Origin: Candidatus Nanopelagicales bacterium
GTDB lineage: Bacteria > Actinomycetota > Actinomycetes > S36-B12
Assembly (NCBI GenBank): GCA_009694585.1
Contig: SHUQ01000002.1
Location: 3,947 to 67,946 of the forward strand
Direction: 5' to 3'
DNA: 64,000 nucleotides
Part shown: in pieces, positions 17,398 through 31,038 of the stretch
Position numbering within the stretch: the first letter of the stretch is position 1
Layout: every line of letters begins with the position of its first letter
The notes under the pieces: generated by a model
The model's database searches: none
What the model saw: the letters and a program-made list of their open reading frames with translations, nothing else
What the model was told of the DNA's origin: nothing
Position numbers and translations under genes: made by a program

Positions 17398-17499
17398 TCA
17401 TTTTGTGCTATTCGTTGAGTGGTGATTGGTATGACTTGTCGGAACGGCGGCGAGTAAGTTTCGGAAGAAGACCTCGTCTTCCAAAATGGCAATCCGCAT
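17398..17499 (-). pseudogene. 33-codon ORF resembling a truncated response-regulator receiver N-terminus
   Basis: MRIAILEDEVFFRNLLAAVPTSHTNHHSTNSTK*, preceded by GGGGG; beta1-ED-alpha1 pattern. Confidence 0.4.
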
Positions 17500-17756
17500 C
17501 CGAGCCCCCTGCATTTAGATTGAAGCTATTTTACGGTTTTTGGTTCAGCGGCTTGACCAAATGGAAATGGTGAAGCCGCTGCATCCAAAAGAGCGGGGGT
17601 AACCCCGGGCAGCAGGTGGTCCAGATTGTTACGACGAAAAGGAAATTGCTCCTGACCATGGGGTCAAGGGCCAAGAGCTGACTGCAACTACTCAGCACGC
17701 AATGGTGATTCGGGTAGGGGCTAGCGCCTCTTGACAGCCACAGGTAGGGTTAAGCG

Positions 17757-18191
17757 GTGTCTGAAAACATTTCATCGCAGCCAGAATCCGGGCAACTCGA
17801 GCCCACCTGGCCAGCTGCGAGTTCCAATCCGGGCCAAGTAATGCGGGCAGGGGTGCCCGCACCCACCGCGGCATCTGCGGTGTCAACATCTGGAAATGCC
17901 GTAGCTGCGCTCGTCCTTTCAATCGCATCTTGGGTCTTCTGCCCCGTAGTTTTTGCAATCATCGCATTGGTCTTCGCGCACTTGGGCAAGAAAGAAATTG
18001 AGGCCTCAGGGGGCTATAGACACGGCATGGAGTTGGTGACCGCTGCTCGAATTGTGGCCTGGATAAACATCGGGCTTTGGGCAGCATTACTAGTAATTGG
18101 GTTAATCATTGGATTTGTCGTTCTGGTGGCCGGGGGATTGTCATCGGTAACACCCGGCTCACTGGGCATTGGGTCGGCGGGAGTTAACTAA
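17757..18191 (+). CDS. DUF4190-like membrane protein
   Basis: TSGNAVAALVLSIASW...IIALVFAHLGKKEI...G..LVTAARIVAWI; stop overlaps next ATG (TAATG). Confidence 0.8.
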   Translation: MSENISSQPESGQLEPTWPAASSNPGQVMRAGVPAPTAASAVSTSGNAVAALVLSIASWVFCPVVFAIIALVFAHLGKKEIEASGGYRHGMELVTAARIVAWINIGLWAALLVIGLIIGFVVLVAGGLSSVTPGSLGIGSAGVN

Positions 18192-20071
18192 TGGCTGTGG
18201 TTGGCGCTTCCGGTTCAAATCTTGACTTACTGACTGACTTACGCGCCCTTTACGACGCCACCGGCGGGGGTACACCGAATGTTACGGTTGCGGTGATCGA
18301 CGGGCCGGTTGACTTCGCTCATGAGGTTTTTGAGGGTGCCGACCTCCGCACGGCCTTAGGCGCAATGTCTGTGACATCCGAGGCCGGAAACAAAATGGCA
18401 GAGCATGGCACACATGTTGCCAGCATTCTCTTTGGCCAGCCCGGGACCGAGGTGGAGGGTATTTGCCCACGGGTTCGAGGGGTAATTATCCCGGTTTATG
18501 ACGCTGCTACGGGCAGTGCGCCACAGTTGGAAGTGGCCCGAGCGATAGAACTGGCAATCGCTGAAGGCGTCGACATCATTAATTTCTCGGGGGGTCAGTA
18601 CTCAGACACCGGGCAAGCCGACCAGTGGCTTTCGGAGGCCGTAGCACGGTGCGCCGAGGCGGGGGTGCTCCTAATTGCGGCGGCAGGAAATGACGGTTGC
18701 GAGTGCCTTCATGTGCCGGCAGCGGCCTCGACGGCCTTGGCCGTGGGCGCCATAGATGCTGCTGGAGAGCCCATGGATTTCAGCAATTGGGGTCATGGGT
18801 ACTCCTGCAATGGGATCACCGCCCCGGGCGCCGATATTTTGGGGGCTGTGCCAGGAGGGGGAGTTACCCGACTGAGCGGTACCTCCTTTGCCACCCCTAT
18901 GGTTACCGGAGTTGCGGCGTTGCTGCTGTCGATGGCCCGGGCGGTCGGGACAGGGGTAGTCCCATTGAGTTCACTCGATATTCGAGAGATAATGATGACA
19001 GGTGCCGCAAAATGTGCTAGTAATTACCCCAATATCTGCCAGCGACTGCTGTCAGGGACGATTAATGTTGAAGGAGCGGTGAAAGCGATGAGCGATGCAA
19101 TGTTAATCGGTCCAGCGGAAGTTGCCCCATCGGGAGGCTGTGGTTGTGGGGGCGAGTCAGCTTCGGTGAGCCCAGAGTCGGCGGTTTCGGCAAGTGTCAC
19201 ACCGTCAATGGCTGATGCACCCGATGGCCAGAATAGTGTCTACGCATTGGGCAATTTGTCGTACGACTTTGGCACGGAGGCACGTCGTGACTCCTTCAAG
19301 CAATTGATGCCACCGGTCGAAATTAACGGCGATGTAGTGCCCCCAAATCCTTATGACGCCCGGCAGCTTGTCGCCTACCTCGGCGATAATCTTTCTGAGG
19401 CTAGGGCGCTCACCTGGACTTTGAATATTGAGTTGACCCCCGTTTACGCGTTGGAGCCAACTGGCGCCTTCGGCGCGGACCTTTATAATCGTCTCGTCGA
19501 AATCTTGGCCGCTGAGATCCTTGCCGAGGGCGATGAGGATAATGTCCAACGCGTCAGCATCCCTGGCCGTCTGACTGGCAACACCGTGCGGCTGTTCTCC
19601 GGTCAAGTTGTGCCAGTGCTTCAGCTTGAGAATCAACGCGGCATTTATGGGTGGAGGCACAATATGCTCGTCGCTCAGGCCGCACAGGCTATCAGCGGCG
19701 GTCCCAACAACACCGCGGATCTGGCCAAAATCCAGGAGAACCTGCGCGGTTTCCTCGACCGGATTTACTACGACATGCGTAACCTTGGTGTGCTCTCGAG
19801 TGATCGGGCGCTTAACTTTGCTGCGACGAATGCATTCCAAGCGGCGATGGTGTTTTCCGAAGCACTGGGCGGAGGCATGCAACTTGAAACCTTAGAGACT
19901 GAAATGTCGCCATTTGCTCGCGCTGATTCTGATGCCTGGGATGTGAAGATGAAGTTCTTCGACCCAGAAAATACCCGCCGTGCCCGTCGGGTGTACCGCT
20001 TCACTATTGACGTCAGCGAACTCATGCCGGTTACCTTGGGCGCGGTCCGCAGCTGGACCACGGCCGTCTGA
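18191..20071 (+). CDS. PatA-like cyanobactin maturation protease (S8 domain plus C-terminal PatA/PatG DUF)
   Basis: Triad VIDGPVD / EHGTHVAS / SGTSFATP; C-terminal YDFGTEARRDSFKQLM, NPYDARQ, RIYYDMRNLG, DRALNFAATNAFQ, WDVKMKFFDPEN, FTIDVS. Confidence 0.93.
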   Translation: MAVVGASGSNLDLLTDLRALYDATGGGTPNVTVAVIDGPVDFAHEVFEGADLRTALGAMSVTSEAGNKMAEHGTHVASILFGQPGTEVEGICPRVRGVIIPVYDAATGSAPQLEVARAIELAIAEGVDIINFSGGQYSDTGQADQWLSEAVARCAEAGVLLIAAAGNDGCECLHVPAAASTALAVGAIDAAGEPMDFSNWGHGYSCNGITAPGADILGAVPGGGVTRLSGTSFATPMVTGVAALLLSMARAVGTGVVPLSSLDIREIMMTGAAKCASNYPNICQRLLSGTINVEGAVKAMSDAMLIGPAEVAPSGGCGCGGESASVSPESAVSASVTPSMADAPDGQNSVYALGNLSYDFGTEARRDSFKQLMPPVEINGDVVPPNPYDARQLVAYLGDNLSEARALTWTLNIELTPVYALEPTGAFGADLYNRLVEILAAEILAEGDEDNVQRVSIPGRLTGNTVRLFSGQVVPVLQLENQRGIYGWRHNMLVAQAAQAISGGPNNTADLAKIQENLRGFLDRIYYDMRNLGVLSSDRALNFAATNAFQAAMVFSEALGGGMQLETLETEMSPFARADSDAWDVKMKFFDPENTRRARRVYRFTIDVSELMPVTLGAVRSWTTAV

Positions 20072-20083
20072 TAGTTGGCAACC

Positions 20084-20272
20084 ATGTTTCCGATCCAGGC
20101 ACCGCCGGTCCAGCGGCCAGAACTTGTCATCGTCTCTTCCACGGTTGACGTGAGTTCAGGGTCTCTGGAAGAATTGTCAGCGGTCTTCATGCACCTAACC
20201 CACGGGGCAAATTATGACTGCCCATCCCCGTGGGTAAATGCTGCATTTGCTGCAAGAAATAGGTCGAGATGA
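20084..20272 (+). CDS. PatB/AcyB/McaB family cyanobactin accessory protein
   Basis: MFPIQAPPVQRPELV...VDVSSGSLEEL...HLTHGANYDCP; PPVxRP and HGANY signatures; follows patA. Confidence 0.88.
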   Translation: MFPIQAPPVQRPELVIVSSTVDVSSGSLEELSAVFMHLTHGANYDCPSPWVNAAFAARNRSR

Positions 20273-20655
20273 GCGCTTCTAAGAAGTCTGCAGGTGGCGA
20301 GAACCCGCCACCTCGCGCGTCGCTGCCCAAGAATGCTAAGCCGGCGAAGTCCACGCCTAAAGCAAAAAAGAAGGCCCCACCAAGTGATCCTGTAGACCGC
20401 GCGCGCGCGTCAACAAAGTCGGTTTCACATGACCTGCACCCAGGGCACAACGTGCACCCGCTAGGTCATAATCCCTCTGAGAAGGTTCGAATTCTCGCGC
20501 ATCTGTACCAACCTTGGGCGGATGTTGATGCCAATGGAGGCGGGCTCTATGCGCTCGCCCACTGGCTCAAGTTGTTGGAGGAGCGGGGGGTCCCTGCAGT
20601 AAGTGATGCGGCTGAGGCTTCTGGGGGTTTCCTTCGTGGCCTGACCCATCGTTAG
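20269..20655 (+). CDS. PatC/TenC/TruC-like protein with Lys/Pro-rich N-terminal extension
   Basis: C-terminal GLYALAHW...FLRGLTHR resembles the PatC pattern GLxDYxxW...FRRGRIW; ATGA overlap with patB. Confidence 0.55.
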   Translation: MSASKKSAGGENPPPRASLPKNAKPAKSTPKAKKKAPPSDPVDRARASTKSVSHDLHPGHNVHPLGHNPSEKVRILAHLYQPWADVDANGGGLYALAHWLKLLEERGVPAVSDAAEASGGFLRGLTHR

Positions 20656-20663
20656 GGCCTGAT

Positions 20664-22697
20664 ATGCCTGACCTGAATACCCTGCCCGGGGTGCTTCGCC
20701 TGCGCGCGCTCACTCAAGGTGACCCTCGGGTCCTTACCGCGGTGATCGATGGCACACCGGTCATTGACCATCCCGCATTTGACGGGGCTGACGTCACTTC
20801 GGTGCGCGGGTACTGGCTAGATGACCGCGAGAATTCAGAAGGTAGTACCGGTCACGCAACCCACATCACGAGTGTGATTTTCGGGCAACCTGGTAGTGAA
20901 GTACCAGGACTGGCACCACGGGCTCGTGGGCTTTTTATCGCATCGGGAGTCGACGAGGACAGCTCCGAATCCGAAATTGGCATTGCGCGCGCTATTGAGT
21001 ATGCACTTTCGCAGGGTGCACAGATAATTCACTGCGCCTTTTGCCACCCAAGCCAGACCGGAGCAACACAGTCGTGGCTAACTGATGCGGTGCGTAAAGC
21101 AGAAGAAGCCGGTGCCATCATCGTGGCGCCGGCGGGTAACGACTACGGCGAGAACTGGTGCTCACCGGCCGCTATGCCAACCGTGCTTGCGGTTGGTGCG
21201 CTAGCAGATGACGGCGCGCCCATGCACTTCACTAACTTTGGATCACGTTATGACGGCCACTCGATTATGGGTCCTGGTGAAAACGTTTTAGGCGCAAAGC
21301 CCGATGGTACTGTCGTTAACCAAAAAGGCACCAGTGTCTCAGCACCGGTACTCACCGCTTTGATAACCGCGATAACCTCTGCACTTGTCCAAGCTGGTCA
21401 CGCGCCAAACCCGCAATTGGTTCGCAATGTCTTGATTGCGACCGCGCGTCCGTGCACCGGATCAGGGGCTGGAAGATGCATCGGTGGCGAAGTCGCGGTT
21501 GATCGTGCCCTTCAGGTCCTATTCGATGGCGTGCCAATTGCTTCTTTTGCGGCCGATAACGCCCGTATTTTGGCTCTGCAACCTGCTCCGAATGCCCCAT
21601 CGGTGATACCCGAACCACCTGCCCCCGATAGCCAGTACCAGTTTCCACCGCATTCATCGGCAACCCATCACCCCGAAGTGCTGCCAGATCCGCGCGAGGT
21701 GTACCTGCGTGAAGAGCGCAGAGGTGTCGCCGTATCACCTTCGGTTGAGCCGTCAATAATGTATCCGGCGCGCACCTTCGCGATCGGCACCATCGGCTAT
21801 GACTTCGGTGATGAAATTACCCGTGATTCATTTAATGAGGCGATGGGCGGACGCTACGGGGTGGGCACCGGCATCACCAATGACCCGCAGGCGATGGTTG
21901 ATTACTTGGATGTCAATCCTGCGGAAGCTCGCCGTTTAATCTGGGTGTTCTCAATAAATGATGAGCCTAGATTTGCAATCACTCCGGTTGGTCCCTACGC
22001 CTCGGATGTCTATGACATGTTGGCGGCGCTGCTGCAAGGTCAGGCCAATGGCAGCATCTCGGTGGTATCAATGCCAGGTAGCGCAGAGCCGGGAATGTCA
22101 ACTTTGCTTGATGGCACCGTCATTCGAAACCTCCATCGCAATGGGCTTCGGGGGATCTACGGCTGGCATGCGGCAAATCTGGCTGAGCAGTGCCTAGCGG
22201 CCGTTCACGGCGATGCCTTGAAGGGACTAGAGCAAGGGATCGCCGCAAAAGCCAAAGCCGAATCAATTGCCGCGGGAGCAGATGATGAGGTTTTCGGAAT
22301 AGATGAGGTCGGAACCGATTTCTGGACCCGCCTGCAGACCGCTCCCTCACCGGAAGTCCAACTTGCGGTCCAGGATTTCTTGGAGGAAATCTACTTCCGG
22401 GCTCCACAAGACCCGTCGGTTTCTGTTGAACGTGCCTTGAATCTAGCGGCAACGAACGGGTACCAAATTGCGATGGCGTTCCTAGACGCACTGAACGCCG
22501 GGTTCCAGTACCAACGTTACGACACCGAGTACAGCCCGTTTAGTCGGGTAGGCGGAAACTGCTGGGAAGTAATTCTCAGATTTAAGGATCCAGTACATCC
22601 GACTCGTGGTGCCCGCGAATACCGATTCACTATTGATGTCGCCGATACGTTGCCGGTAGCGGTCGGTCGGGTGCGACGCTGGGCGGCCGTTCGGTGA
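20664..22697 (+). CDS. PatG-like protease (stand-alone S8 plus DUF), lacking the macrocyclase insertion
   Basis: TQGDPRV..VIDG, GHATHITS, IIHCAFCHPSQT, PAGND..ENWC.PA, KGTSVSAP; DUF motifs GYDFGDE, ERALNLAATN, FTIDVAD. Confidence 0.9.
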   Translation: MPDLNTLPGVLRLRALTQGDPRVLTAVIDGTPVIDHPAFDGADVTSVRGYWLDDRENSEGSTGHATHITSVIFGQPGSEVPGLAPRARGLFIASGVDEDSSESEIGIARAIEYALSQGAQIIHCAFCHPSQTGATQSWLTDAVRKAEEAGAIIVAPAGNDYGENWCSPAAMPTVLAVGALADDGAPMHFTNFGSRYDGHSIMGPGENVLGAKPDGTVVNQKGTSVSAPVLTALITAITSALVQAGHAPNPQLVRNVLIATARPCTGSGAGRCIGGEVAVDRALQVLFDGVPIASFAADNARILALQPAPNAPSVIPEPPAPDSQYQFPPHSSATHHPEVLPDPREVYLREERRGVAVSPSVEPSIMYPARTFAIGTIGYDFGDEITRDSFNEAMGGRYGVGTGITNDPQAMVDYLDVNPAEARRLIWVFSINDEPRFAITPVGPYASDVYDMLAALLQGQANGSISVVSMPGSAEPGMSTLLDGTVIRNLHRNGLRGIYGWHAANLAEQCLAAVHGDALKGLEQGIAAKAKAESIAAGADDEVFGIDEVGTDFWTRLQTAPSPEVQLAVQDFLEEIYFRAPQDPSVSVERALNLAATNGYQIAMAFLDALNAGFQYQRYDTEYSPFSRVGGNCWEVILRFKDPVHPTRGAREYRFTIDVADTLPVAVGRVRRWAAVR

Positions 22698-24982
22698 GCA
22701 TGCTGGTCGGGCTGAGCCCAGCGGTGACAGTGAATCCCGCTGATGCCAGCTGGAGTGAGTTGGTCGGGCCGAGCGGCTCGCTGCTGGTACCTGCTGACTT
22801 TGCAAAATCCTTACCGGCGGGCGGTGCCTCGCCATCTAATGCGGTCGGTGGTGCGCGCCTGCTGCAGAGGTTGGCTGATGGCGGATTCTTAGCTGTCACG
22901 GCGTATGACGGAGATACCCCGCTGGCAACTTTGGTGCCGGGTGTGGATCCCTTGGAATCAATGCCAGTTGATGCATTGCCGACGACGGCCTACCGTCTTT
23001 CGAGATTCGCCTACCTACATCGTTCCAAGCGGCAGGTGTTGATTGAGATTCCGACCACCTCTGCTTATTTGGAGATTCACGATCCGCGCGTTGCTGCGAT
23101 TGCGGCCGGCCTTGCATTTGATCAGACCCCGGTAGCGCTGGCGTCAGCCAGCGGATTAAGTGTTGGGGGCGTCTGCGAAGTTCTTGGCCTAATGCGTTCG
23201 ATCGGCATCGTGGTTCCGGTGGTTCGCGGCCTGGAGTTCGTGCCGGCGGTTGCGTCCTTGGTGGACTGGGCGGAGCGCGAGGTATTAACAAGAGGCTTCT
23301 CGCATTCGGGTTTGGTAGCCGGCCTCGACCAGATCCCGGTGGATGGTGCAGATGGTTTTTTCCACTTGATTTTTGAACTGCACCATGACGGCTCCCGCAA
23401 GGTCGACATCTCGGTCTGTTTGCCATATTCCGGTCCGGGCACCAGTGGAGATCGCGCGCTGCTGGGCGACATGGGGTTTTATGAGTTTGATGTAGTTGAC
23501 GGGGTCGAGTCGCTAATGGGGTTATTCGTACATTTACGACCACCGACCGACCTGCTTGATCAAGACGAGCAGGTGCATCGCCTTGATGAGGCCCTTAGAG
23601 CGCTAGGCACCCACTGCTGTGCCTCGAGCAACCTCGATGCCCGCGGACTGGTCGCGGCTCTGGGCTTACCGGTGATGCTTGCAGTACTACATGAGCGAGA
23701 CGATGCCGTGCGAATGCTATTTTCCGTCCCCGACCTCGCGGCTTTGTCCGCAGCTCAGAAGGCCTTGCTCGATGCGGGATTGCCGCTAGCTAGTTTGGCG
23801 CACTTCCCGGCGATCGAGCCGCTGATTGGCGGTATGTCCCCGCTGCGGATCGCCGTTGATCTAACACAAACGGGTTTGGGTCAGCGCATCGGCTTTGAAG
23901 TTCTCGCTCCGCAGGCGATTGCAATTCTCGGTGCGGTGATGCCGGAACTTGGCGTTGACCCCCAAATGCAGGCGAGTGCCCTGGCGGCTATCTCCGAACC
24001 CAGTAAAGAGCGCACGGTTTACCAAACCAACCTAGATGGTTCGGTAACCGATGTTCCGGTTGCGCGGCAAGTCATTAACTTGCTGCACGTCAAAATCGGC
24101 CTCGAGCAAGATGGTCAAGTTGCGATCAAGACCTACTCCATTGCAGCGAGCAAGCCCTTCAACGAGGTTGGTAAGTCGGTTGAGGATGAGCGAATTCCTA
24201 AGTCATGGGAGTTTCACGATCTCCTTTTTCACACCAAGACCCGAAATGGCCGGGTGCGCGGTAAGCTCGGTGGCACCATCCGATTCGCATTAATGCCACA
24301 CCCGGCGGAGCCGTCAACCCAACCGGTGCCAGGTGACATCTTGTTGCCAAAGGTTGATATCCCAGCGGTAATTGCAACGGACCCGCCATTTGGCAAGGTA
24401 CTTGAGGATCGAAAGTCGATTCGCGCATGGAATGGTGCCGAATTACCGGTGGCCCAGGTTTCCGAATTGCTTGCACGGGTGATGCACTTGATCCCGCGAA
24501 GTGACGAATTAAATGGCCAGGCCATTGAGCGTTCTGGGCGGGTGTACCCATCGGGTGGAGCTCTTTATGAAATTGACATTGTGTTGTTTGCTAATCGCGT
24601 CGCTGGGTTGGCTCCGGGGGCATACCTTTACCGTCAAGGGTCGCATTCACTGGGCGCACTAACTGGTGACATCGAAAAGCAAGAGAAAGTTTTATTTGGC
24701 GCCAGTGATGCGACAGGTGCTGGAATGTCCCGGCCCCAGGCACTTCTTGTGTTGGCTGCACGTTTCCCAGATATAGCGACCAAATATGAGGGCATCGCAT
24801 ATTCGCTAATGCTCAAGCATGTCGGTGTAATGATGGCGACAATTCAATACTCGGCAACGGCGATGGGCCTAGGGTCGGTGCCTTTAGGCACTGGCGACAG
24901 CGACGCATTCGCACTGGCCACCGGCCTTGACTACTACACTCAAGGATCCATCGGTGAAATTGCTATCAGCCCGATGGATTGA
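22694..24982 (+). CDS. SagB/ThcOx-type azoline oxidase with a large inserted domain
   Basis: YRLSRFAYLHR peptide-clamp region, WEFHDLLFHTKTR, RKSIR, RVYPSGGALYE, catalytic KY in ATKYEGIAY. Confidence 0.88.
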   Translation: MSMLVGLSPAVTVNPADASWSELVGPSGSLLVPADFAKSLPAGGASPSNAVGGARLLQRLADGGFLAVTAYDGDTPLATLVPGVDPLESMPVDALPTTAYRLSRFAYLHRSKRQVLIEIPTTSAYLEIHDPRVAAIAAGLAFDQTPVALASASGLSVGGVCEVLGLMRSIGIVVPVVRGLEFVPAVASLVDWAEREVLTRGFSHSGLVAGLDQIPVDGADGFFHLIFELHHDGSRKVDISVCLPYSGPGTSGDRALLGDMGFYEFDVVDGVESLMGLFVHLRPPTDLLDQDEQVHRLDEALRALGTHCCASSNLDARGLVAALGLPVMLAVLHERDDAVRMLFSVPDLAALSAAQKALLDAGLPLASLAHFPAIEPLIGGMSPLRIAVDLTQTGLGQRIGFEVLAPQAIAILGAVMPELGVDPQMQASALAAISEPSKERTVYQTNLDGSVTDVPVARQVINLLHVKIGLEQDGQVAIKTYSIAASKPFNEVGKSVEDERIPKSWEFHDLLFHTKTRNGRVRGKLGGTIRFALMPHPAEPSTQPVPGDILLPKVDIPAVIATDPPFGKVLEDRKSIRAWNGAELPVAQVSELLARVMHLIPRSDELNGQAIERSGRVYPSGGALYEIDIVLFANRVAGLAPGAYLYRQGSHSLGALTGDIEKQEKVLFGASDATGAGMSRPQALLVLAARFPDIATKYEGIAYSLMLKHVGVMMATIQYSATAMGLGSVPLGTGDSDAFALATGLDYYTQGSIGEIAISPMD

Positions 24983-25009: not shown

Positions 25010-25804
25010 ATGTCGGGTCTGGTAAACACCGACGTTGAGCCATGGGAGTTCACGCTTGCGTCAATTGGCTCCTTTCGCGTCGCGGCGGATGGATCACCTG
25101 TGGTGACCATGGAAACCGGCTTAGACGCACAGGGCGAGGCCATGGTGCTAAACAATTTGCTCGACCCCCTTATTTGGTGGCGCCGGGGGTTCTGGTTGCT
25201 GAATGGTTCAGTCATGGTCGACCCGGCTGGTCGTGCGGTGTTGATCTCATCGGCACCAGAATTGGCCGAACGGGTGGTTGTCGGGCTTTCGAAAATCGGC
25301 TGGAAGTGTGTAGGTGACTTCCTGGTTCCCGCGCGAGTTGAATCTGGTCAGGTAATCGTCTATCCACGTGAAGCGCCGGTAATTTGCTCTGCAGCTATCG
25401 CGGTGATGGAGTCGATGACCATCGAAAACTTCGTGCGCCCAGGCGGTAATGCGGTGGGCATCGGGATTGCTCGCTGGAGCCAACCGATCGCCTTGGTAGC
25501 CATGGCAACTTTGATGCCTGAGCCGCCCGAGCCGGTCTCACCTGGCATTGGACGTGCTCGAATCGCACGTGCGCTGCTGGTAGAGGTGGTAGCCAAGGAG
25601 CGCACTCCCGGTGAGCTCTTGGAGATCGTGGCCGGCCTCGCGGTGCTGCCGGCTTGGGTGAGTAGTGATCCGTTGCGTGCCATAACCGACCCGGATGCCG
25701 AATGGGCATCGACGGATGCCCACCACACAAGTAGCAAGGCCAGGGGTGCCTTGGAACTTTCACTTGCTGAACTTGCGGCTTGGGTGGACTCGCAAAATGA
25801 CTAA
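25010..25804 (+). CDS. Degenerate HPr kinase/phosphorylase-like protein (P-loop lost)
   Basis: RGFWLLNGSVMVDPAGRAVLISSAPEL...GWKCVGDF parallels RG..LHAS.V...GRAVL..G.SG.GKST...G...DD. Confidence 0.55.
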   Translation: MSGLVNTDVEPWEFTLASIGSFRVAADGSPVVTMETGLDAQGEAMVLNNLLDPLIWWRRGFWLLNGSVMVDPAGRAVLISSAPELAERVVVGLSKIGWKCVGDFLVPARVESGQVIVYPREAPVICSAAIAVMESMTIENFVRPGGNAVGIGIARWSQPIALVAMATLMPEPPEPVSPGIGRARIARALLVEVVAKERTPGELLEIVAGLAVLPAWVSSDPLRAITDPDAEWASTDAHHTSSKARGALELSLAELAAWVDSQND

Positions 25805-27017
25805 CGCGGATTTAGCGTCACTGCCAGCAAATATTTGGTTGGCTTCGTATCCGAAATCGGGTAACACCTGGTTTCGATTCTTCTGGAAGGCGATTGAGGC
25901 CGCGCAAGACCCAGACCTTAAGCCGCATGTATCTCCACAGCCCTGCCAGATGGAGTACTTAACCGGATGGGGTATTGATGCTCGGCGCCTTACCTGTGAC
26001 GAGTTGGATCTTCTACGATCGCGTCTGGAGTTGGTCACTGGTGATCGGGCCGGGCGCCCTACCTTGCGCAAGACCCACGAGAAGTTTCGTAGCGCACCTG
26101 ATGGCTCGGAGTTGTTTCCGGCAGCCTCCTCACGCGCCGCATTGGTGATCATCAGAGACCCCCGCGATTTAGTTTGCTCCGCCGCCCGGCACTTCAATAT
26201 GAGCTTGGATGCCGCGGTCGACCTGCTGTGCCGTCGCGATCCGCAAACGCCCGGGACGCCGTCCGTCCTGATGAGTCGGCAACCGCAAGGGTCGTGGTCG
26301 GAGCACCTTGATAGTTGGCGGCGCCTCCCCACTTATCCGGTTGCGGTCTACCGCTATGAGGACTTCTTGGCAGAACCCTATGTAACCTTCGGTGCCGCGT
26401 TGGAGTTTGCCGGCCTTGAAGTTTCAGAAAGCGAGCTTACGCACGCCATTGAAAGCACCCGTTTCGAAAAACTACAATCACGCGAACGTGAATCCGGGTT
26501 CACCGAACGTGCACCCAGCTCCAACGTGCCATTTTTTAGAAAAGGGAAGGCCGGTGGCTGGCGTGAAGAGTTAAGTGGTAGTCAGATTTCGAGGATTGAA
26601 CGCAATTGCGGTGCCTTGATGGAAGAGTTTGGGTATGCAATTGAAGGGCGAACGGTATCTGTGTCGCGAGCGTCAGAGCCAAAGGTGATCACATCTGGGG
26701 AGAAGTTGTTCACCGGTGCACTTCCGCCGAAAACGGATGTGGCGTTCGGCCTTTCAACGAAATTAGTTAAAGACCCGCGAGTGATCACTTCGCAAGTAGG
26801 TGATGACCTAGTTTTGGTAACTGGAGAATACGAATTGATCGGCTTGGATGAGATGGGTGCTTTTATCTGGGACTTTCTTGACGAGCCTATGACATTTCAG
26901 GTGCTGGTCGACGGGCTCTGTGCACGATTTGGGATTGACGCCGTCACCTGTATCGATGACACCTCGCCGATGCTGCAACTGTTATTAAACGGCGGGGCAC
27001 TCACCTCGCGGAACTAA
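25797..27017 (+). CDS. PAPS-dependent sulfotransferase fused to a C-terminal PqqD/RRE domain
   Basis: WLASYPKSGNTW, KTH, IRDPRD..S, RYED, FFRKGKAGGW; tail VGDDLVLV...LDEMGAFIWDFLDEPMT...L.ARFGID...L..GAL. Confidence 0.9.
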   Translation: MTNADLASLPANIWLASYPKSGNTWFRFFWKAIEAAQDPDLKPHVSPQPCQMEYLTGWGIDARRLTCDELDLLRSRLELVTGDRAGRPTLRKTHEKFRSAPDGSELFPAASSRAALVIIRDPRDLVCSAARHFNMSLDAAVDLLCRRDPQTPGTPSVLMSRQPQGSWSEHLDSWRRLPTYPVAVYRYEDFLAEPYVTFGAALEFAGLEVSESELTHAIESTRFEKLQSRERESGFTERAPSSNVPFFRKGKAGGWREELSGSQISRIERNCGALMEEFGYAIEGRTVSVSRASEPKVITSGEKLFTGALPPKTDVAFGLSTKLVKDPRVITSQVGDDLVLVTGEYELIGLDEMGAFIWDFLDEPMTFQVLVDGLCARFGIDAVTCIDDTSPMLQLLLNGGALTSRN

Positions 27018-27048: not shown

Positions 27049-29316
27049 CTACCAGAAAATCGGGGTTGGGTTCAGTTCGGCCTCGGTTAGCGCAGTTTCC
27101 CGCCACCCCATCTTTACCGGTACGTCATAAAGTCGGCCAGGTGCGAACCTCGGCCAGAAATGGCGTATTCCGGGCACCACTACTTTTACAACTGGCATCC
27201 CGATATCGGGCTTCGTCATGTTTGCCACCGACATGGTTAGGTCATTGTCAGCAAGCAGTTTCACTACTCGCTCCACATTCGCTTTCCCATCTTTAGTCCA
27301 GTCATGCGCGTGATCAGCGGGGGTTGTTAACGGTTGAGTTGGATCTGGCAACACGTATGGGTGGGTAGCCATTGTTGGGGTGTACCACCAATTAACTTCT
27401 GGCTTGGAAACATCCAGCTCGGTTGGGGCCCCCTGGGCTTCCATGGCACCGATCATGCCGAGCATCTGATTCATCTCGGTGAGTGATCGCAGCAACGCGC
27501 CGCGGGGATCGCGGTGCGCACCGAAACCGAGAAGGATGCGGGGGAGCCCGGTGCGGGCTCGCGAGGCGGCAACAAATGCCGGGATACCTAGGTCGCTGGT
27601 GACATCAAGGGCCCAGATCTCGCGATCAAGGACTTCGCTGTAATGGGTCCTAAGCCGATTGAAGTACGAATCCTCATAGGTGCTCGCGTAGGCATCGATA
27701 TCTACCCCGGGCCGGCTGATGCCGTTATACCACCAGGTTGCAACCGCATCGCGTTCTACCAATTCAAAGAAGCCTTGCAAGATGGCATCCTCGATCGAAG
27801 TGCCAGCGGCATTTCCGTTGGAATCCGAGTTGCAGCCATTGCGCGGATACTCACCCACATAGTTGTAGTAGGAATACGAGGTCGGCAACCAGACACGTCG
27901 CTGCTCAGTAAGCGACCACAGGGGCGACCAGGGCATTTCAACATCAGGATCGAAGCGTTTTGGAATGACATGCTTGCCATTGCGTGCGGCGTTCCACTCC
28001 TCTCGAATGTCGTACTGGTGGTCACTGAATAATGCACACTTTCGCGGATCGATAGCTAGATCACCGAGTGCTGTCATTGACGACACCATGCTGGGCTCAT
28101 CGCCGGCGTAGGTTGCGGCGTAGCGTTCAATAGCTTCGGCCAAGGCGCCGGCGCGCGCCTGCTCAGGGGTGGTGCCCTTTCCCCCGGCATTTTGCCGGAA
28201 GCCACAAACTTTCGCCCCCTTCTTAACCGTGGCGAGATTAACCCCCGACTCAACAACGTGCGTGACGTCATTGTCGAGGTTGGTGCGTTGTAGGTGTTCG
28301 ACCACGCCGGTCACCCGACTGACCTGGTGACCGTAGGTGTCCAGGGTTTGTTGTGGCGTCAGGCGCCGGTAGCTTCCGTCGTCCCTGGCGTCAAGTGCTC
28401 CTGTTTCGAGAACAATTTCAACTGGCACGTTTTCTATGGTGAGTGGTTCACCGCAGGTCGCACATTGCGGTCGCCGCACCACATGATGGGTGCTGCGGTC
28501 TCCATTTAGGTGGTCAATTACGGTCATTTGTGAGATTGAAGGATCTTGATGAGCATTTGCGTTTGGCCGGCCGACGAAAGTCCGCAACAGTTCGAGAGAG
28601 ATTTCGCCTCCTGCATGTGCGAGCGTGGTGGGAGTCCAGCCCTTAGCAATTGGGCCCATGCGCTCGCCCTCACCAAGTAAGCGTTTCTCGACCTGCCGAT
28701 TGAACTGCAGGCGCACCGCAAGGCAATTCCAGCAGGGGCCGGGTGCCCCAAGCCAGGGGCCAATAGTTGGACGGACACCGCAAATGTTTGCAAGCAGCAC
28801 CGGGGTGCCTAGTTCGCATGCCTCCTGGGCCACAGCCTCAATATCAGGATTCAGGTAATCATCAGCAATCACTACGAGTGCGGACGCGGCGGCGAGGTCT
28901 TCGGTTACGCCCAACTTGTGCGCGGAAATTGACGCCCGAATTTCAGCCGTTGGTACGTCGCCAACTCCAACAACCGCAACCATCGTTTGTGGCAAATCGG
29001 CGGTAATGTGGTCCCGCCACCACATCCTATATACGTCAGCTGGTCCGGTGACCTCGCTCGAATCGACTACGAATCCGTGATCCATCAAGATCTCAATGGC
29101 CGCAGGAACCTCTTGCTCGGTGGCGGTGCCCGCTGCGGCCATTTTGGCCGTAATTTCAGCCACGGTGGCTCGTCCATCAATATGGGGTGCTAGGGCAGTG
29201 AAAAGTTCACCGGTGAGCACCTGCTCGTCACCGTCGGTGATCAGGTAGATCTCCTCAGGTGGCACGATGATGGTCCGGCTGTGGGGCTGCCAAAGTGGGA
29301 TGAGGTCCGTATTCAT
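27049..29316 (-). CDS. Fused TOMM cyclodehydratase (PatD/TruD-like: RRE, E1-like, YcaO)
   Basis: GPCWNCL and RRPQCATCG, GKGTT, EAIERY, SNGNAAG, ELVERDA, LTEMNQ, RFAPGRLYDVPV, C-terminal NPTPIFW; upstream start at 29376 also possible. Confidence 0.95.
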   Translation of the reverse strand: MNTDLIPLWQPHSRTIIVPPEEIYLITDGDEQVLTGELFTALAPHIDGRATVAEITAKMAAAGTATEQEVPAAIEILMDHGFVVDSSEVTGPADVYRMWWRDHITADLPQTMVAVVGVGDVPTAEIRASISAHKLGVTEDLAAASALVVIADDYLNPDIEAVAQEACELGTPVLLANICGVRPTIGPWLGAPGPCWNCLAVRLQFNRQVEKRLLGEGERMGPIAKGWTPTTLAHAGGEISLELLRTFVGRPNANAHQDPSISQMTVIDHLNGDRSTHHVVRRPQCATCGEPLTIENVPVEIVLETGALDARDDGSYRRLTPQQTLDTYGHQVSRVTGVVEHLQRTNLDNDVTHVVESGVNLATVKKGAKVCGFRQNAGGKGTTPEQARAGALAEAIERYAATYAGDEPSMVSSMTALGDLAIDPRKCALFSDHQYDIREEWNAARNGKHVIPKRFDPDVEMPWSPLWSLTEQRRVWLPTSYSYYNYVGEYPRNGCNSDSNGNAAGTSIEDAILQGFFELVERDAVATWWYNGISRPGVDIDAYASTYEDSYFNRLRTHYSEVLDREIWALDVTSDLGIPAFVAASRARTGLPRILLGFGAHRDPRGALLRSLTEMNQMLGMIGAMEAQGAPTELDVSKPEVNWWYTPTMATHPYVLPDPTQPLTTPADHAHDWTKDGKANVERVVKLLADNDLTMSVANMTKPDIGMPVVKVVVPGIRHFWPRFAPGRLYDVPVKMGWRETALTEAELNPTPIFW

Positions 29317-29385
29317 TGGGAAAGCGTACGCGTAAATTGGGGTCAATTGTCGGCTTTTCGTTCCATAGACTGCCATAATCCGGAA
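29317..29385. promoter_or_regulatory. Divergent, probably leaderless promoters for ycaO and the MFS gene
   Basis: Minus-strand TACGCT (29323-29328) 6 nt before ATG 29316; plus-strand CATAAT (29374-29379) 6 nt before ATG 29386. Confidence 0.5.
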
Positions 29386-31038
29386 ATGAACACGCTAATG
29401 GATCTTGCTCAACTTTCGAGAATTCATCCCAACAATCCCGATGTAGTTGCAGCGAAGGCAAGGGGTAAATCCCCCGAGTCCCATTCTGATTCCAAATCCA
29501 GTAAAGTCCGCATGGGGCTGGCCTCGCACATCGCGCTCATCGCGCTAGCCACCGGCCAATTCTTGGTGGGCCTTGACCTCAGCGTCATGTCGGTTGCCCT
29601 GCCGAGTATTCAAAAGGAATTCGGCGTTGGTATGGCTCAGATGGAATGGGCGATGATGGCTTACATGGTGGCCGGCGCTGCCCTCGCGGTGCCAGCGGGT
29701 GCCCTTGGTGACCGCACCGGCCGGCGTCGGCTGTATTTGATCGGTACCTCAATTTTCGTTGTTGGTTCGGCTATCAGCGCACTTTCCCCTGACATGGGTG
29801 TACTGATCGTTGGCCGGGCAATTCAAGGTGTTGGGTCGGGATTCATGGGCACCTTGGCCTTGGCCATGTTGACATCTGCGGTTGCGCACGATCAGATAGC
29901 GAAACTAATTGGACTCTGGACCGCTGTCACCTCAGGTGCTTCTGCGTTTGGACCAATTATCGGCGGCGCAATGGTGGAGTTCCTGGGCTGGCGTTGGATG
30001 TTCGGAATCAACGTTTTTTTGATGGCAGCTGTTATTCCGCTGGTAATTCGAGAAGTTCCAAAAGATATTCCTGATGGATCAGAAAAACGTCGAGTTGACT
30101 GGCTGGGATCATCGCTCCTTACGGTCGCGATGATTTTGGTTGCCGGTGGCTTGAGCATGCTAGAAACCAGTAAGTATTACGAACCCATTGTTTATGTACC
30201 GGTTGCTGCTGGATTCGTTGTTCTTTTGATAATGGTAATGCAGCAACGCCATAGCCTGATTAAGTTAACTAACTGGGCGTCGATCAAGGTGGCACCCATC
30301 CCGGCAACATTGACAATCTCGGTTCTACTTTCGATGGTATTGGCCGGGGCCATGATGCAGCAGATGCTCTTGGTCCAAAACGTGCTCGGGTTCACCCCGT
30401 TGTTGGCCGGCATCTCCTCCTTCGGCGCCTCATTAATGCTGGTCGTGTGCTCGCCCATCTCACCAAGAATCATGGGCCGCATCGGCTTAGGCCCGACAAC
30501 CTGCATCGGCTTGGGCACGGTCGCGATTGGGCTCTTTGGCCTGCACCTGACCACCGACACGACCGGGTTGTTGCAGATTGCCTTCTGGTTTGGGGTCATG
30601 GGCGTGGGTATTGGTGTGGGAATGCCGGCGGTATCCGCAGGCGCCATGATGTCGATACCGCGGGACCAAATGGGCACCATCTCTGGTTTCATGGGGCTGA
30701 TCGGTTCAATTTCAGCGGTCTTGGGTATTTCCGTGGTCGGTGCCATTTCGGCGGTGCGAGTGACTTCGGTTTGGCTGGTTGAAGGCGCTCAGATTTCCGG
30801 ATATGAGTCGCTCACCGATGAGGTAGTTTCCGGTGCCATCCCCGAAATCCTGGCAACCAATGGCCAGGATGCGGCTACGGCGGCCGGGTTGTCCTACACC
30901 GTTGGGGTAACCACCGCGTTGATGATTGCGGCAGTTGGGGTGGCGATCGCGGCAATCGTCGCCTTATTCCTCTTGGGATCGCGGGGCAAGGCCACCAAGG
31001 CCGCCGAGCACCCGGTGGAACCAGCTGGGACGCAGTAG
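29386..31038 (+). CDS. MFS transporter, DHA2/EmrB-like exporter
   Basis: LDLSVMSVALPSI, GALGDRTGRRR (motif A), GRAIQGVG, GPIIGG, WRWMFGINV; start could be 29512. Confidence 0.92.
   Translation: MNTLMDLAQLSRIHPNNPDVVAAKARGKSPESHSDSKSSKVRMGLASHIALIALATGQFLVGLDLSVMSVALPSIQKEFGVGMAQMEWAMMAYMVAGAALAVPAGALGDRTGRRRLYLIGTSIFVVGSAISALSPDMGVLIVGRAIQGVGSGFMGTLALAMLTSAVAHDQIAKLIGLWTAVTSGASAFGPIIGGAMVEFLGWRWMFGINVFLMAAVIPLVIREVPKDIPDGSEKRRVDWLGSSLLTVAMILVAGGLSMLETSKYYEPIVYVPVAAGFVVLLIMVMQQRHSLIKLTNWASIKVAPIPATLTISVLLSMVLAGAMMQQMLLVQNVLGFTPLLAGISSFGASLMLVVCSPISPRIMGRIGLGPTTCIGLGTVAIGLFGLHLTTDTTGLLQIAFWFGVMGVGIGVGMPAVSAGAMMSIPRDQMGTISGFMGLIGSISAVLGISVVGAISAVRVTSVWLVEGAQISGYESLTDEVVSGAIPEILATNGQDAATAAGLSYTVGVTTALMIAAVGVAIAAIVALFLLGSRGKATKAAEHPVEPAGTQ

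Follow-up and report, generated by a model that had tools for sequence, protein, structure and literature searches.

Sulfated members of the class of peptides that are made on the ribosome and modified after translation (RiPPs) include RaxX, some methanobactins, and lanthipeptides (PMC11143521). Biarylitide clusters also encode sulfotransferases, which are called understudied (PMC13417212), and a sulfotransferase has been noted near mycobacterial YcaO-TfuA genes (PMC6511847); enzymes of this kind are described as rarely characterized in RiPP pathways (PMC11143521, PMC13417212). Here, we describe a gene at 25797..27017 of a 64,000-nucleotide stretch of Candidatus Nanopelagicales bacterium (assembly GCA_009694585.1, contig SHUQ01000002.1, positions 3,947 to 67,946; hereafter, the window, and its genome, G000), predicted to encode a sulfotransferase dependent on 3'-phosphoadenosine 5'-phosphosulfate (PAPS) that is fused to a RiPP recognition element (RRE). 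Proteins with an RRE are reported to carry 1,158 Pfam domains; a sulfotransferase is not named in the available text, though the data sets may list such fusions (PMC12710340). No RRE-fused sulfotransferase or sulfated cyanobactin was found in the literature searched, subscription papers lying outside its scope.

Among the closest known systems are two kinds of RiPP sulfotransferase. SslST and SscST, the lanthipeptide tyrosine sulfotransferases of actinobacteria, carry out PAPS-dependent RiPP tailoring, as the fusion is predicted to do; SslST is leader-independent, requires the A ring, modifies a single conserved Tyr, and comes from a cluster that also contains cysCDN (PMC11143521). The fusion differs in its attached RRE, in facing hypervariable cores without a fixed Tyr, and in having cysD and cysNC elsewhere in the genome. 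RaxST sulfates the linear precursor of the sulfatyrotide RaxX ahead of leader removal, as proposed here; compared by description, it differs in having one precursor with a class-defining Tyr and no azole chemistry, and an RRE fusion is undescribed in the available part of that source (PMC11143521).

Other systems resemble the locus in its neighborhood, its peptides, or its fold. Paeninodin-type lasso clusters share the HprK-sulfotransferase-PqqD neighborhood, the RRE family, and the WxxP leader motif, with a separate sulfotransferase gene that is only putative and a kinase that acts on the C-terminal Ser (PMC8498205); in the cluster studied here, the RRE is instead fused, the kinase homolog is degenerate, lasso peptidase and cyclase are both missing, and the precursors close with an acidic follower. 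The pat and thc pathways of cyanobactins, and those of the linear aeruginosamide type, share PatA-, PatD-, and PatG-like genes, a ThcOx-type oxidase, and hypervariable, Cys-ended cores flanked by protease sites (PMC4663559, PMC10885120), and the locus also has a candidate PatB-like gene. Unlike them, our locus belongs to an actinobacterial host, has no PatE-model leader, PatC match, or macrocyclization insert, and adds the sulfotransferase module and a predicted prenyltransferase fold within the oxidase; its precursors are scattered, with up to 50 matches per genome as opposed to the up to 10 per cluster given in a review of cyanobactins. The pathway runs like a cyanobactin pathway and departs from one in the insert and in the PatE and PatC models, and we therefore name it cyanobactin-like. 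For the catalytic domain, the closest solved structures are Teg12, Teg14, and StaL (3MG9, 3MGB, 3NIB, 2OV8), which act on peptide scaffolds, 3MGB having been solved with teicoplanin aglycone; these differ from the fusion in sequence (about 21% identity), in their non-ribosomal substrate, and in having no RRE.

The gene and its two domains lie as follows.

25797..27017, + strand: sulfotransferase-RRE fusion gene, 406 aa (PF00685 + PF05402)
25830..26633, + strand: predicted PAPS-dependent sulfotransferase domain, aa 12-279 (PF00685)
26760..27014, + strand: predicted PqqD/lasso-B1-like RRE, aa 322-406, three strands then three helices

The frame translates into 406 aa with zero internal stops, and its ATG overlaps the stop of the upstream kinase-like gene, which ends at 25804. 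An alternative longer start at 25695 was rejected because close homologs are likewise 406 aa long. The Pfam family Sulfotransfer_1 (PF00685) matches aa 12-279 (E 2.6e-22, 79.9 bits against a cut-off of 22). An earlier sequence-only reading had claimed a complete set of PAPS-binding motifs, and all five can be located in the frame: YPKSGNTW (aa 18-25), KTH (92-94), RDPRD...S (120-128), RYED (186-189), and FFRKG..GGW (246-255). Positions K20, H94, R120, S128, and F246-G250 are invariant or almost so among 31 aligned sequences. By analogy with SULT enzymology, we take the motifs to include the 5'-phosphosulfate loop, the catalytic His, the 3'-phosphate Arg and Ser, and the C-terminal RKG. The closest solved relative of this domain is the glycopeptide sulfotransferase Teg12 (3MG9, E 2.9e-11).

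The same reading had proposed a PqqD-like tail from about position 26761, and this too stands: PF05402 (PqqD, Pfam) matches aa 346-400 above its cut-off (E 2e-9, 38.1 bits against 23.4), and the first strand of the RRE begins at aa 322 (about nt 26760). Its fold is borne out by a match to the lasso RRE TbiB1 (5V1U) over aa 328-399 (E 2.1e-6) and by the order of elements in an AlphaFold model built from 31 sequences (mean predicted local distance difference test score [pLDDT] 82.1; predicted template modeling score [pTM] 0.67). In that model, strands at 330-334, 337-341, and 347-350 are followed by helices at 352-360, 367-378, and 382-399 (block pLDDT 78-93), and the linker between the two domains (288-310) is disordered. 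The RRE also matches NF033536 (E 1e-7, below cut-off), 9X90, and 5V1U, that is, the RRE family of lasso clusters. When the model was submitted to Foldseek, the top match was 3MGB (Teg12), and all listed matches belong to the sulfotransferase family, one of them titled retinol dehydratase; these cover the catalytic domain only, and the RRE fold rests on PF05402, TbiB1, the AlphaFold model, and 9X90/5V1U. A close homolog is already entered in one public source under the label PqqD-family chaperone. Sequence and model thus identify the 406-aa product as a predicted PAPS-type sulfotransferase fused to a lasso-B1-like RRE.

The source names of close homologs are Actinomycetota, and both domains occur together in 13 proteins, the query included, among the best 120 of 3648 matches. 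The full fusion is present in 9/11 genus relatives at 78-83% identity, with identical gene order around it as far as the contigs extend; the two relatives without it are 57% and 79% complete, and the PatA-type genes are missing from both too. Across 10 orthologous genes (45 pairs), the ratio of nonsynonymous to synonymous change (pN/pS) rises from 0.13 for the catalytic domain to 0.19 for the RRE and 0.48 for the linker. Purifying selection acts on both domains, and the low value for the RRE indicates that it is maintained.

PatA-type genes were found in 32/390 genomes of the order, all within one family. Outside the genus, 22 genomes possess them and three of these carry the fusion (G227, G252, and G261); in every fusion-bearing locus seen, it occupies the same operon position. 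Elsewhere the absence of the module is structural in at least two genomes: in G175, the oxidase directly abuts PatD, leaving no space for it, and in G013 the whole cluster lies on one contig with the module absent. On a tree of PatG-like proteins from 18 clusters, the fusion-bearing clusters need two changes, and a single clade of them is rejected (18 rows, approximately unbiased test p 4.3e-7), a test made with a quick search and with long branches flagged.

No precursor lies inside the cluster, and the PatE and lasso-leader models gave nothing useful across G000; the PatE model TIGR03678 has no match in that genome, and none of four precursors examined is recognized by an NCBIfam model. When related loci were scanned for motifs, four small open reading frames (ORFs) came to light upstream of PatA in L123 and L124, and a profile made from these finds a dispersed family in G000, with 17 matches. 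Eight of its genes are intact, and 19 places are counted when contig-end fragments and frameshifted copies are included. All 11 genus relatives have matches, 5-50 each and 323 in total; the ones read are those that lie in fetched loci. Two genes of the cluster, the PatB-like gene and a 128-aa ORF, had been considered as the substrate and were dropped when this family emerged.

The precursors consist of a conserved leader, a hypervariable core ending in Cys, and an acidic follower (a FEGNEE-type tail). With a pattern requiring W-x-R-P, 71 precursors yield 66 different cores of 8-18 residues, 65/66 of them Cys-ended, the ends of each core having been assigned from the analogous PatA and PatG cleavage sites (PMC10885120). 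Many precursor genes are accompanied by a conserved stretch of ~70 bases with an inverted repeat downstream and by two or three conserved upstream types (G000 contigs C99, C85, C75, and C94; many genus loci, such as L225, L228, L230, and L240); the stretch may be a terminator or part of a gene-spreading unit. Many copies stand in tandem or at contig ends. A different, PatE-like layout of two to four cores with acidic spacers was seen in L311, L351, L362, and L380 (G189, G188, and G257), whose clusters have no sulfotransferase.

Discrete lasso RREs bind the motif [Y/W]xxPx[L/V/I/F/A], with Y-16, P-13, and V-11 as the contacts in an RRE-leader crystal structure (PMC13381572). In precursors read without a W/P filter, WxxPx[LVIFA] is present in 71/82, and the Trp stands at -16 from the core in 64/67, which is the spacing reported for that structure. 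Clusters with and without the fusion offer a natural control, for which we used a profile trained on 65 motif-less precursors only and scored the motif after a shared D-R-L-x-L element. Anchored leaders from 13 fusion-bearing genomes have [W/Y]xxP in 87/95 cases (2 unanchored), as against 0/72 (3 unanchored) in 10 genomes that have the cluster but no fusion match. Homologous precursors were obtained from 13 of the 22 cluster genomes outside the genus; the other 9 gave none and are excluded from this count. In G266, the nearest sister, which shares the follower type, Pro stands at the motif position in 6/17 leaders and Trp never. The putative docking motif of the leader goes with the fusion across related clusters, and its gain or loss along with a tailoring module illustrates clearly how RiPP pathways acquire new chemistry in nature.

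Judged from sequence, these precursors elsewhere in the genome and the distribution of their motif favor the earlier proposal of a leader-guided peptide sulfotransferase. We think it likely that the RRE grips the WxxP site of the leader and that, before leader removal, the catalytic domain passes sulfate from PAPS to a hydroxyl of the core.

The origin of the module was addressed with 158 related sulfotransferase loci from genomes and metagenomes, annotated by custom profiles seeded from Pfam-labelled genes. Fusions occur in 3/158, each in this cyanobactin-like cluster type. A separate PqqD gene immediately follows the sulfotransferase in 34/158 loci, an HprK-like gene lies within 6 kb in 80/158, and lasso B2 and cyclase are both found in 28/158. 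In a FastTree tree of 158 catalytic domains, for which tandem rows were thinned to 30 and solo rows to 20, the fusions and 8 context-less proteins stand beside 7 actinobacterial HprK/lasso-type loci with a support of 1.0, and the six upstream genes of such loci that were aligned are degenerate in the same way as the kinase-like gene of the window. It is likely, on the evidence of these comparisons, that an actinobacterial HprK-sulfotransferase-PqqD cassette of lasso-type clusters was captured and its last two genes fused.

The wider picture is a tentative one, and we would put it a little short of probable: a lasso-derived RRE-sulfotransferase module would have been grafted more than once into a cyanobactin-like pathway, dozens of scattered precursor genes would have gained WxxP next to the heterocyclase site to give a chimeric leader, and leader-directed, core-indifferent sulfation would yield a library of sulfated thiazole peptides, probably linear and in some cases perhaps prenylated, in uncultured actinobacteria with small genomes. 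If it is true, the enzyme could sulfate any peptide fused to a 39-residue leader and could be a portable tool for sulfating chosen peptides. Because the enzyme is RRE-fused, its motif has been identified, and 66 or more natural cores are available, leader-directed peptide sulfation is directly testable.

Several kinds of related loci were seen along the way. L031, L033, L036, and many of L044-L201 are lasso-type clusters with HprK and a sulfotransferase that carry several WxxP-leader precursors, many of them Ser-ended; L033 has two PqqD genes, one immediately behind the sulfotransferase. A more distant pair of an HprK-like gene and a sulfotransferase occurs in TfuA-YcaO clusters (L038:2807-7607 and L039:8630-14948) with a Nif11-type precursor and an M20 peptidase, and these are candidate sulfated thioamide RiPPs. 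Tandem arrays of 2-5 such sulfotransferase genes without RiPP markers were found in Alphaproteobacteria (L064, L069, L072, L121, and others).

The cluster around the fusion is inserted between rpoC and rpsL and runs in the order DUF4190, PatA-like, PatB-like, 128-aa ORF, PatG-like, oxidase, kinase-like, fusion, convergent PatD-like, and major facilitator superfamily (MFS) genes.

17757..18191, + strand: DUF4190 membrane protein at the operon start, in 4/5 genus loci reaching that far
18191..20071, + strand: PatA-like subtilisin protease with PatG_D/PatG_C domains (TIGR03895)
20084..20272, + strand: PatB-like small protein (TIGR04220, below cut-off)
20269..20655, + strand: conserved 128-aa ORF in the PatC position, no PatC model match
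20664..22697, + strand: PatG-like protease without the macrocyclization insert (TIGR03895, 447 bits)
22694..24982, + strand: ThcOx/SagB-type azoline oxidase (PF22767, TIGR03605)
about 23249-24178, + strand: predicted ABBA-prenyltransferase-fold insert in the oxidase (model, Foldseek)
25010..25804, + strand: HPr-kinase-like protein (profile comparison to intact HprK)
27049..29376, - strand: PatD-like YcaO cyclodehydratase (PF02624 E 4e-87, PF21084, TIGR03604, TIGR03882 above cut-off)
29281..31038, + strand: MFS efflux transporter (PF07690, E 6.5e-50), divergent from the PatD-like gene

The PatA-like protease scores 719 bits against TIGR03895 (cut-off 421) and has its Asp, His, and Ser motifs. 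The PatB-like protein matches TIGR04220 with an E of 3.7e-13 and 48.9 bits, under the cut-off of 55, and the PatC model TIGR04447 finds no match at the 128-aa ORF. The PatD-like enzyme carries its own winged-helix and leader-binding regions. Solved PatG-type enzymes have a stretch of ~40 residues between the catalytic Asp and His; this insert is missing from the PatG-like protease, for which chain residues 67-106 of 4H6X are left out opposite query residues 57-61 in the alignment and whose Asp-His spacing is 35, the same as in the PatA-like gene. The insert of PatG shields the active site from water (PMC4663559), and because the PatG-like enzyme lacks it, the products are likely to be linear rather than macrocyclic.

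The oxidase insert (310 aa, model pLDDT 91.6) matches only aromatic prenyltransferases in Foldseek (best E 4.7e-8, template modeling score about 0.5), and by sequence nothing was found for it in Pfam, PDB sequence, or ESM Atlas searches. Its relatives form the N-terminus of LanM-type lanthipeptide synthetases in 8/22 matches and also occur as stand-alone proteins without a Pfam match, and together they would constitute an unnamed RiPP-linked family for which a prenyltransferase fold is predicted. The kinase-like protein has no Pfam or NCBIfam match, and pairwise BLAST of the gene to intact HprK came back blank; the link is by profile comparison only (hhalign to an intact HprK-type alignment, 97%, E 8.5e-11). 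The His, the Walker A GxxGxGKST, and the Asp-Asp that are invariant in 14 intact HprK relatives are all replaced in it, which suggests that it is probably a non-catalytic partner. Neither a lasso B2 peptidase nor an asparagine-synthetase-like cyclase was found in the nine cluster proteins or in the fusion-bearing loci of the 158-locus set, the rest of the genome being unsearched.

The MFS gene beside the cluster reaches up to three tandem copies in G004 (L025:473-4100). At 17449-17538 on the - strand of the window lies a 30-codon remnant of a response regulator (63% identity), and no copy was found in the rest of G000; in relatives of the genus, for example at L027, the response regulator is intact here and accompanied by a histidine kinase. 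The family also has another cluster type that is more divergent (L304, L305, L307, L313, L314, L316, and L317), with PatA at 44-52%, PatB, PatG-like at 30-32%, and often MFS; no PatD, oxidase, or precursor match was found in the DNA fetched for it.

In the order of events that we propose, the PatD-like enzyme would convert Cys into thiazoline, probably via the D-R-L-x-L leader element common to clusters with and without the fusion, and the ThcOx-type oxidase would turn thiazolines into thiazoles, with prenylation as a possibility. The RRE would dock on WxxPx[V/A], with the Trp 16 residues before the core, and the flexible linker would let the catalytic domain reach Ser, Thr, or Tyr anywhere in the core. 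The leader would be removed by the PatA-like protease and the follower by the insert-less PatG-like protease, probably through hydrolysis, to leave linear thiazole-ended peptides, which the MFS protein would export.

Ser, Thr, or Tyr is found in 61/66 cores, and Tyr in 31/66. Tyr as a dedicated target was rejected: when 86 cores from fusion-bearing genomes and their genus are compared with 59 from other genomes, the excess of Tyr before the last Cys (14/86 versus 2/59, p 0.016 uncorrected) fails once 22 tests are allowed for, and Tyr anywhere in the last 8 core residues is similar (37/86 versus 23/59, p 0.73). A within-core shuffle gives 11/66 with Tyr before the last Cys (p 0.001, relatedness ignored), and Tyr next to the last Cys as the target is a hint only.

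A number of observations weigh against leader-directed sulfation and should be kept in mind. The motif [W/Y]xxP is absent from 8/95 leaders of fusion-bearing genomes, and G002 and G007 have it (15/18 leaders), although neither of their assemblies, both incomplete, yielded a fusion. The genomes are related, and the comparison of leaders amounts to about two independent changes; in the second fusion lineage, G261 (61% complete), the evidence is a single precursor together with a fusion gene that is divided between two contigs. No fixed acceptor runs across the cores, 5/66 having no Ser, Thr, or Tyr, and Tyr is present in 0/8 intact G000 cores, though the nearest solved relatives (Teg12 and SULT1A) are aryl sulfotransferases. 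Finally, in 75/158 related loci none of PqqD, HprK, lasso B2, and YcaO lies within 6 kb; short contigs or tandem arrays account for many of these.

It is conceivable, if unlikely, that the RRE works for some other enzyme, be it the kinase-like partner, the oxidase, or the prenyltransferase-fold insert of the oxidase, and that the sulfotransferase acts leader-free on the released peptide. In the source cassette, PqqD often precedes lasso B2 and may have served that peptidase, having been fused merely as a neighbor, and the disordered linker of the AlphaFold model leaves no fixed contact between the domains (pTM 0.67); the leader independence of SslST (PMC11143521) also fits and weighs against leader-guided sulfation here. 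Against this reading, the cluster has no lasso B2 or cyclase, PatD and the oxidase also occur in clusters without the module and without the motif, and the kinase-like neighbor is without its catalytic residues. An RRE fused to a domain, moreover, suggests a functional partnership with it (PMC12710340).

Leader-guided sulfation might instead be transient, a step that primes the C-terminus or Ser/Thr for elimination, decarboxylation, or ring closure and leaves a sulfate-free product, an outcome that we regard as quite doubtful: no eliminating enzyme was identified in the cluster, and Ser/Thr near the core end is no commoner in fusion-bearing genomes than in others, although 8/8 intact G000 cores contain Ser or Thr and none contains Tyr, and the structural relative 22GA is titled as catalysing sulfation-assisted ring formation. 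Curacin biosynthesis is said to proceed through a sulfation-driven decarboxylative elimination. Less likely still is a reading in which the enzyme sulfates small aryl molecules and keeps its RRE as a relic, the peptides being irrelevant to it. The top structural matches do include human SULT1A and other small-molecule enzymes, and relatives are found in non-RiPP tandem arrays, but purifying selection on the RRE, the constant operon position in all fusion-bearing loci seen, and a leader motif that tracks the fusion all speak against this. We favor leader-guided sulfation of the peptide core.

Such sulfation calls for PAPS, and the sequence-only reading had remarked that no PAPS-synthesis genes lie in the window and had placed the supply elsewhere in the genome. 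A search of G000 agrees on both counts: cysD and cysNC-type genes are adjacent on contig C39, outside the window, and the sole adenosine 5'-phosphosulfate kinase match and sole PF01507 match of the genome are both on this contig. A second PF01507 gene and a sulfite reductase domain were not found in the 84% complete G000, and a second sulfotransferase gene (PF13469) is present at C19:193-882, the fusion therefore not being the only one. Because of these three observations, PAPS may serve sulfation more than assimilation in G000. The presence of cysNC was dropped as a discriminator because it occurs in 20/24 genomes, with and without the fusion. The cysD/cysNC genes (G000:C39:46137-48745) are flanked by a TrmH-like region and pheS.

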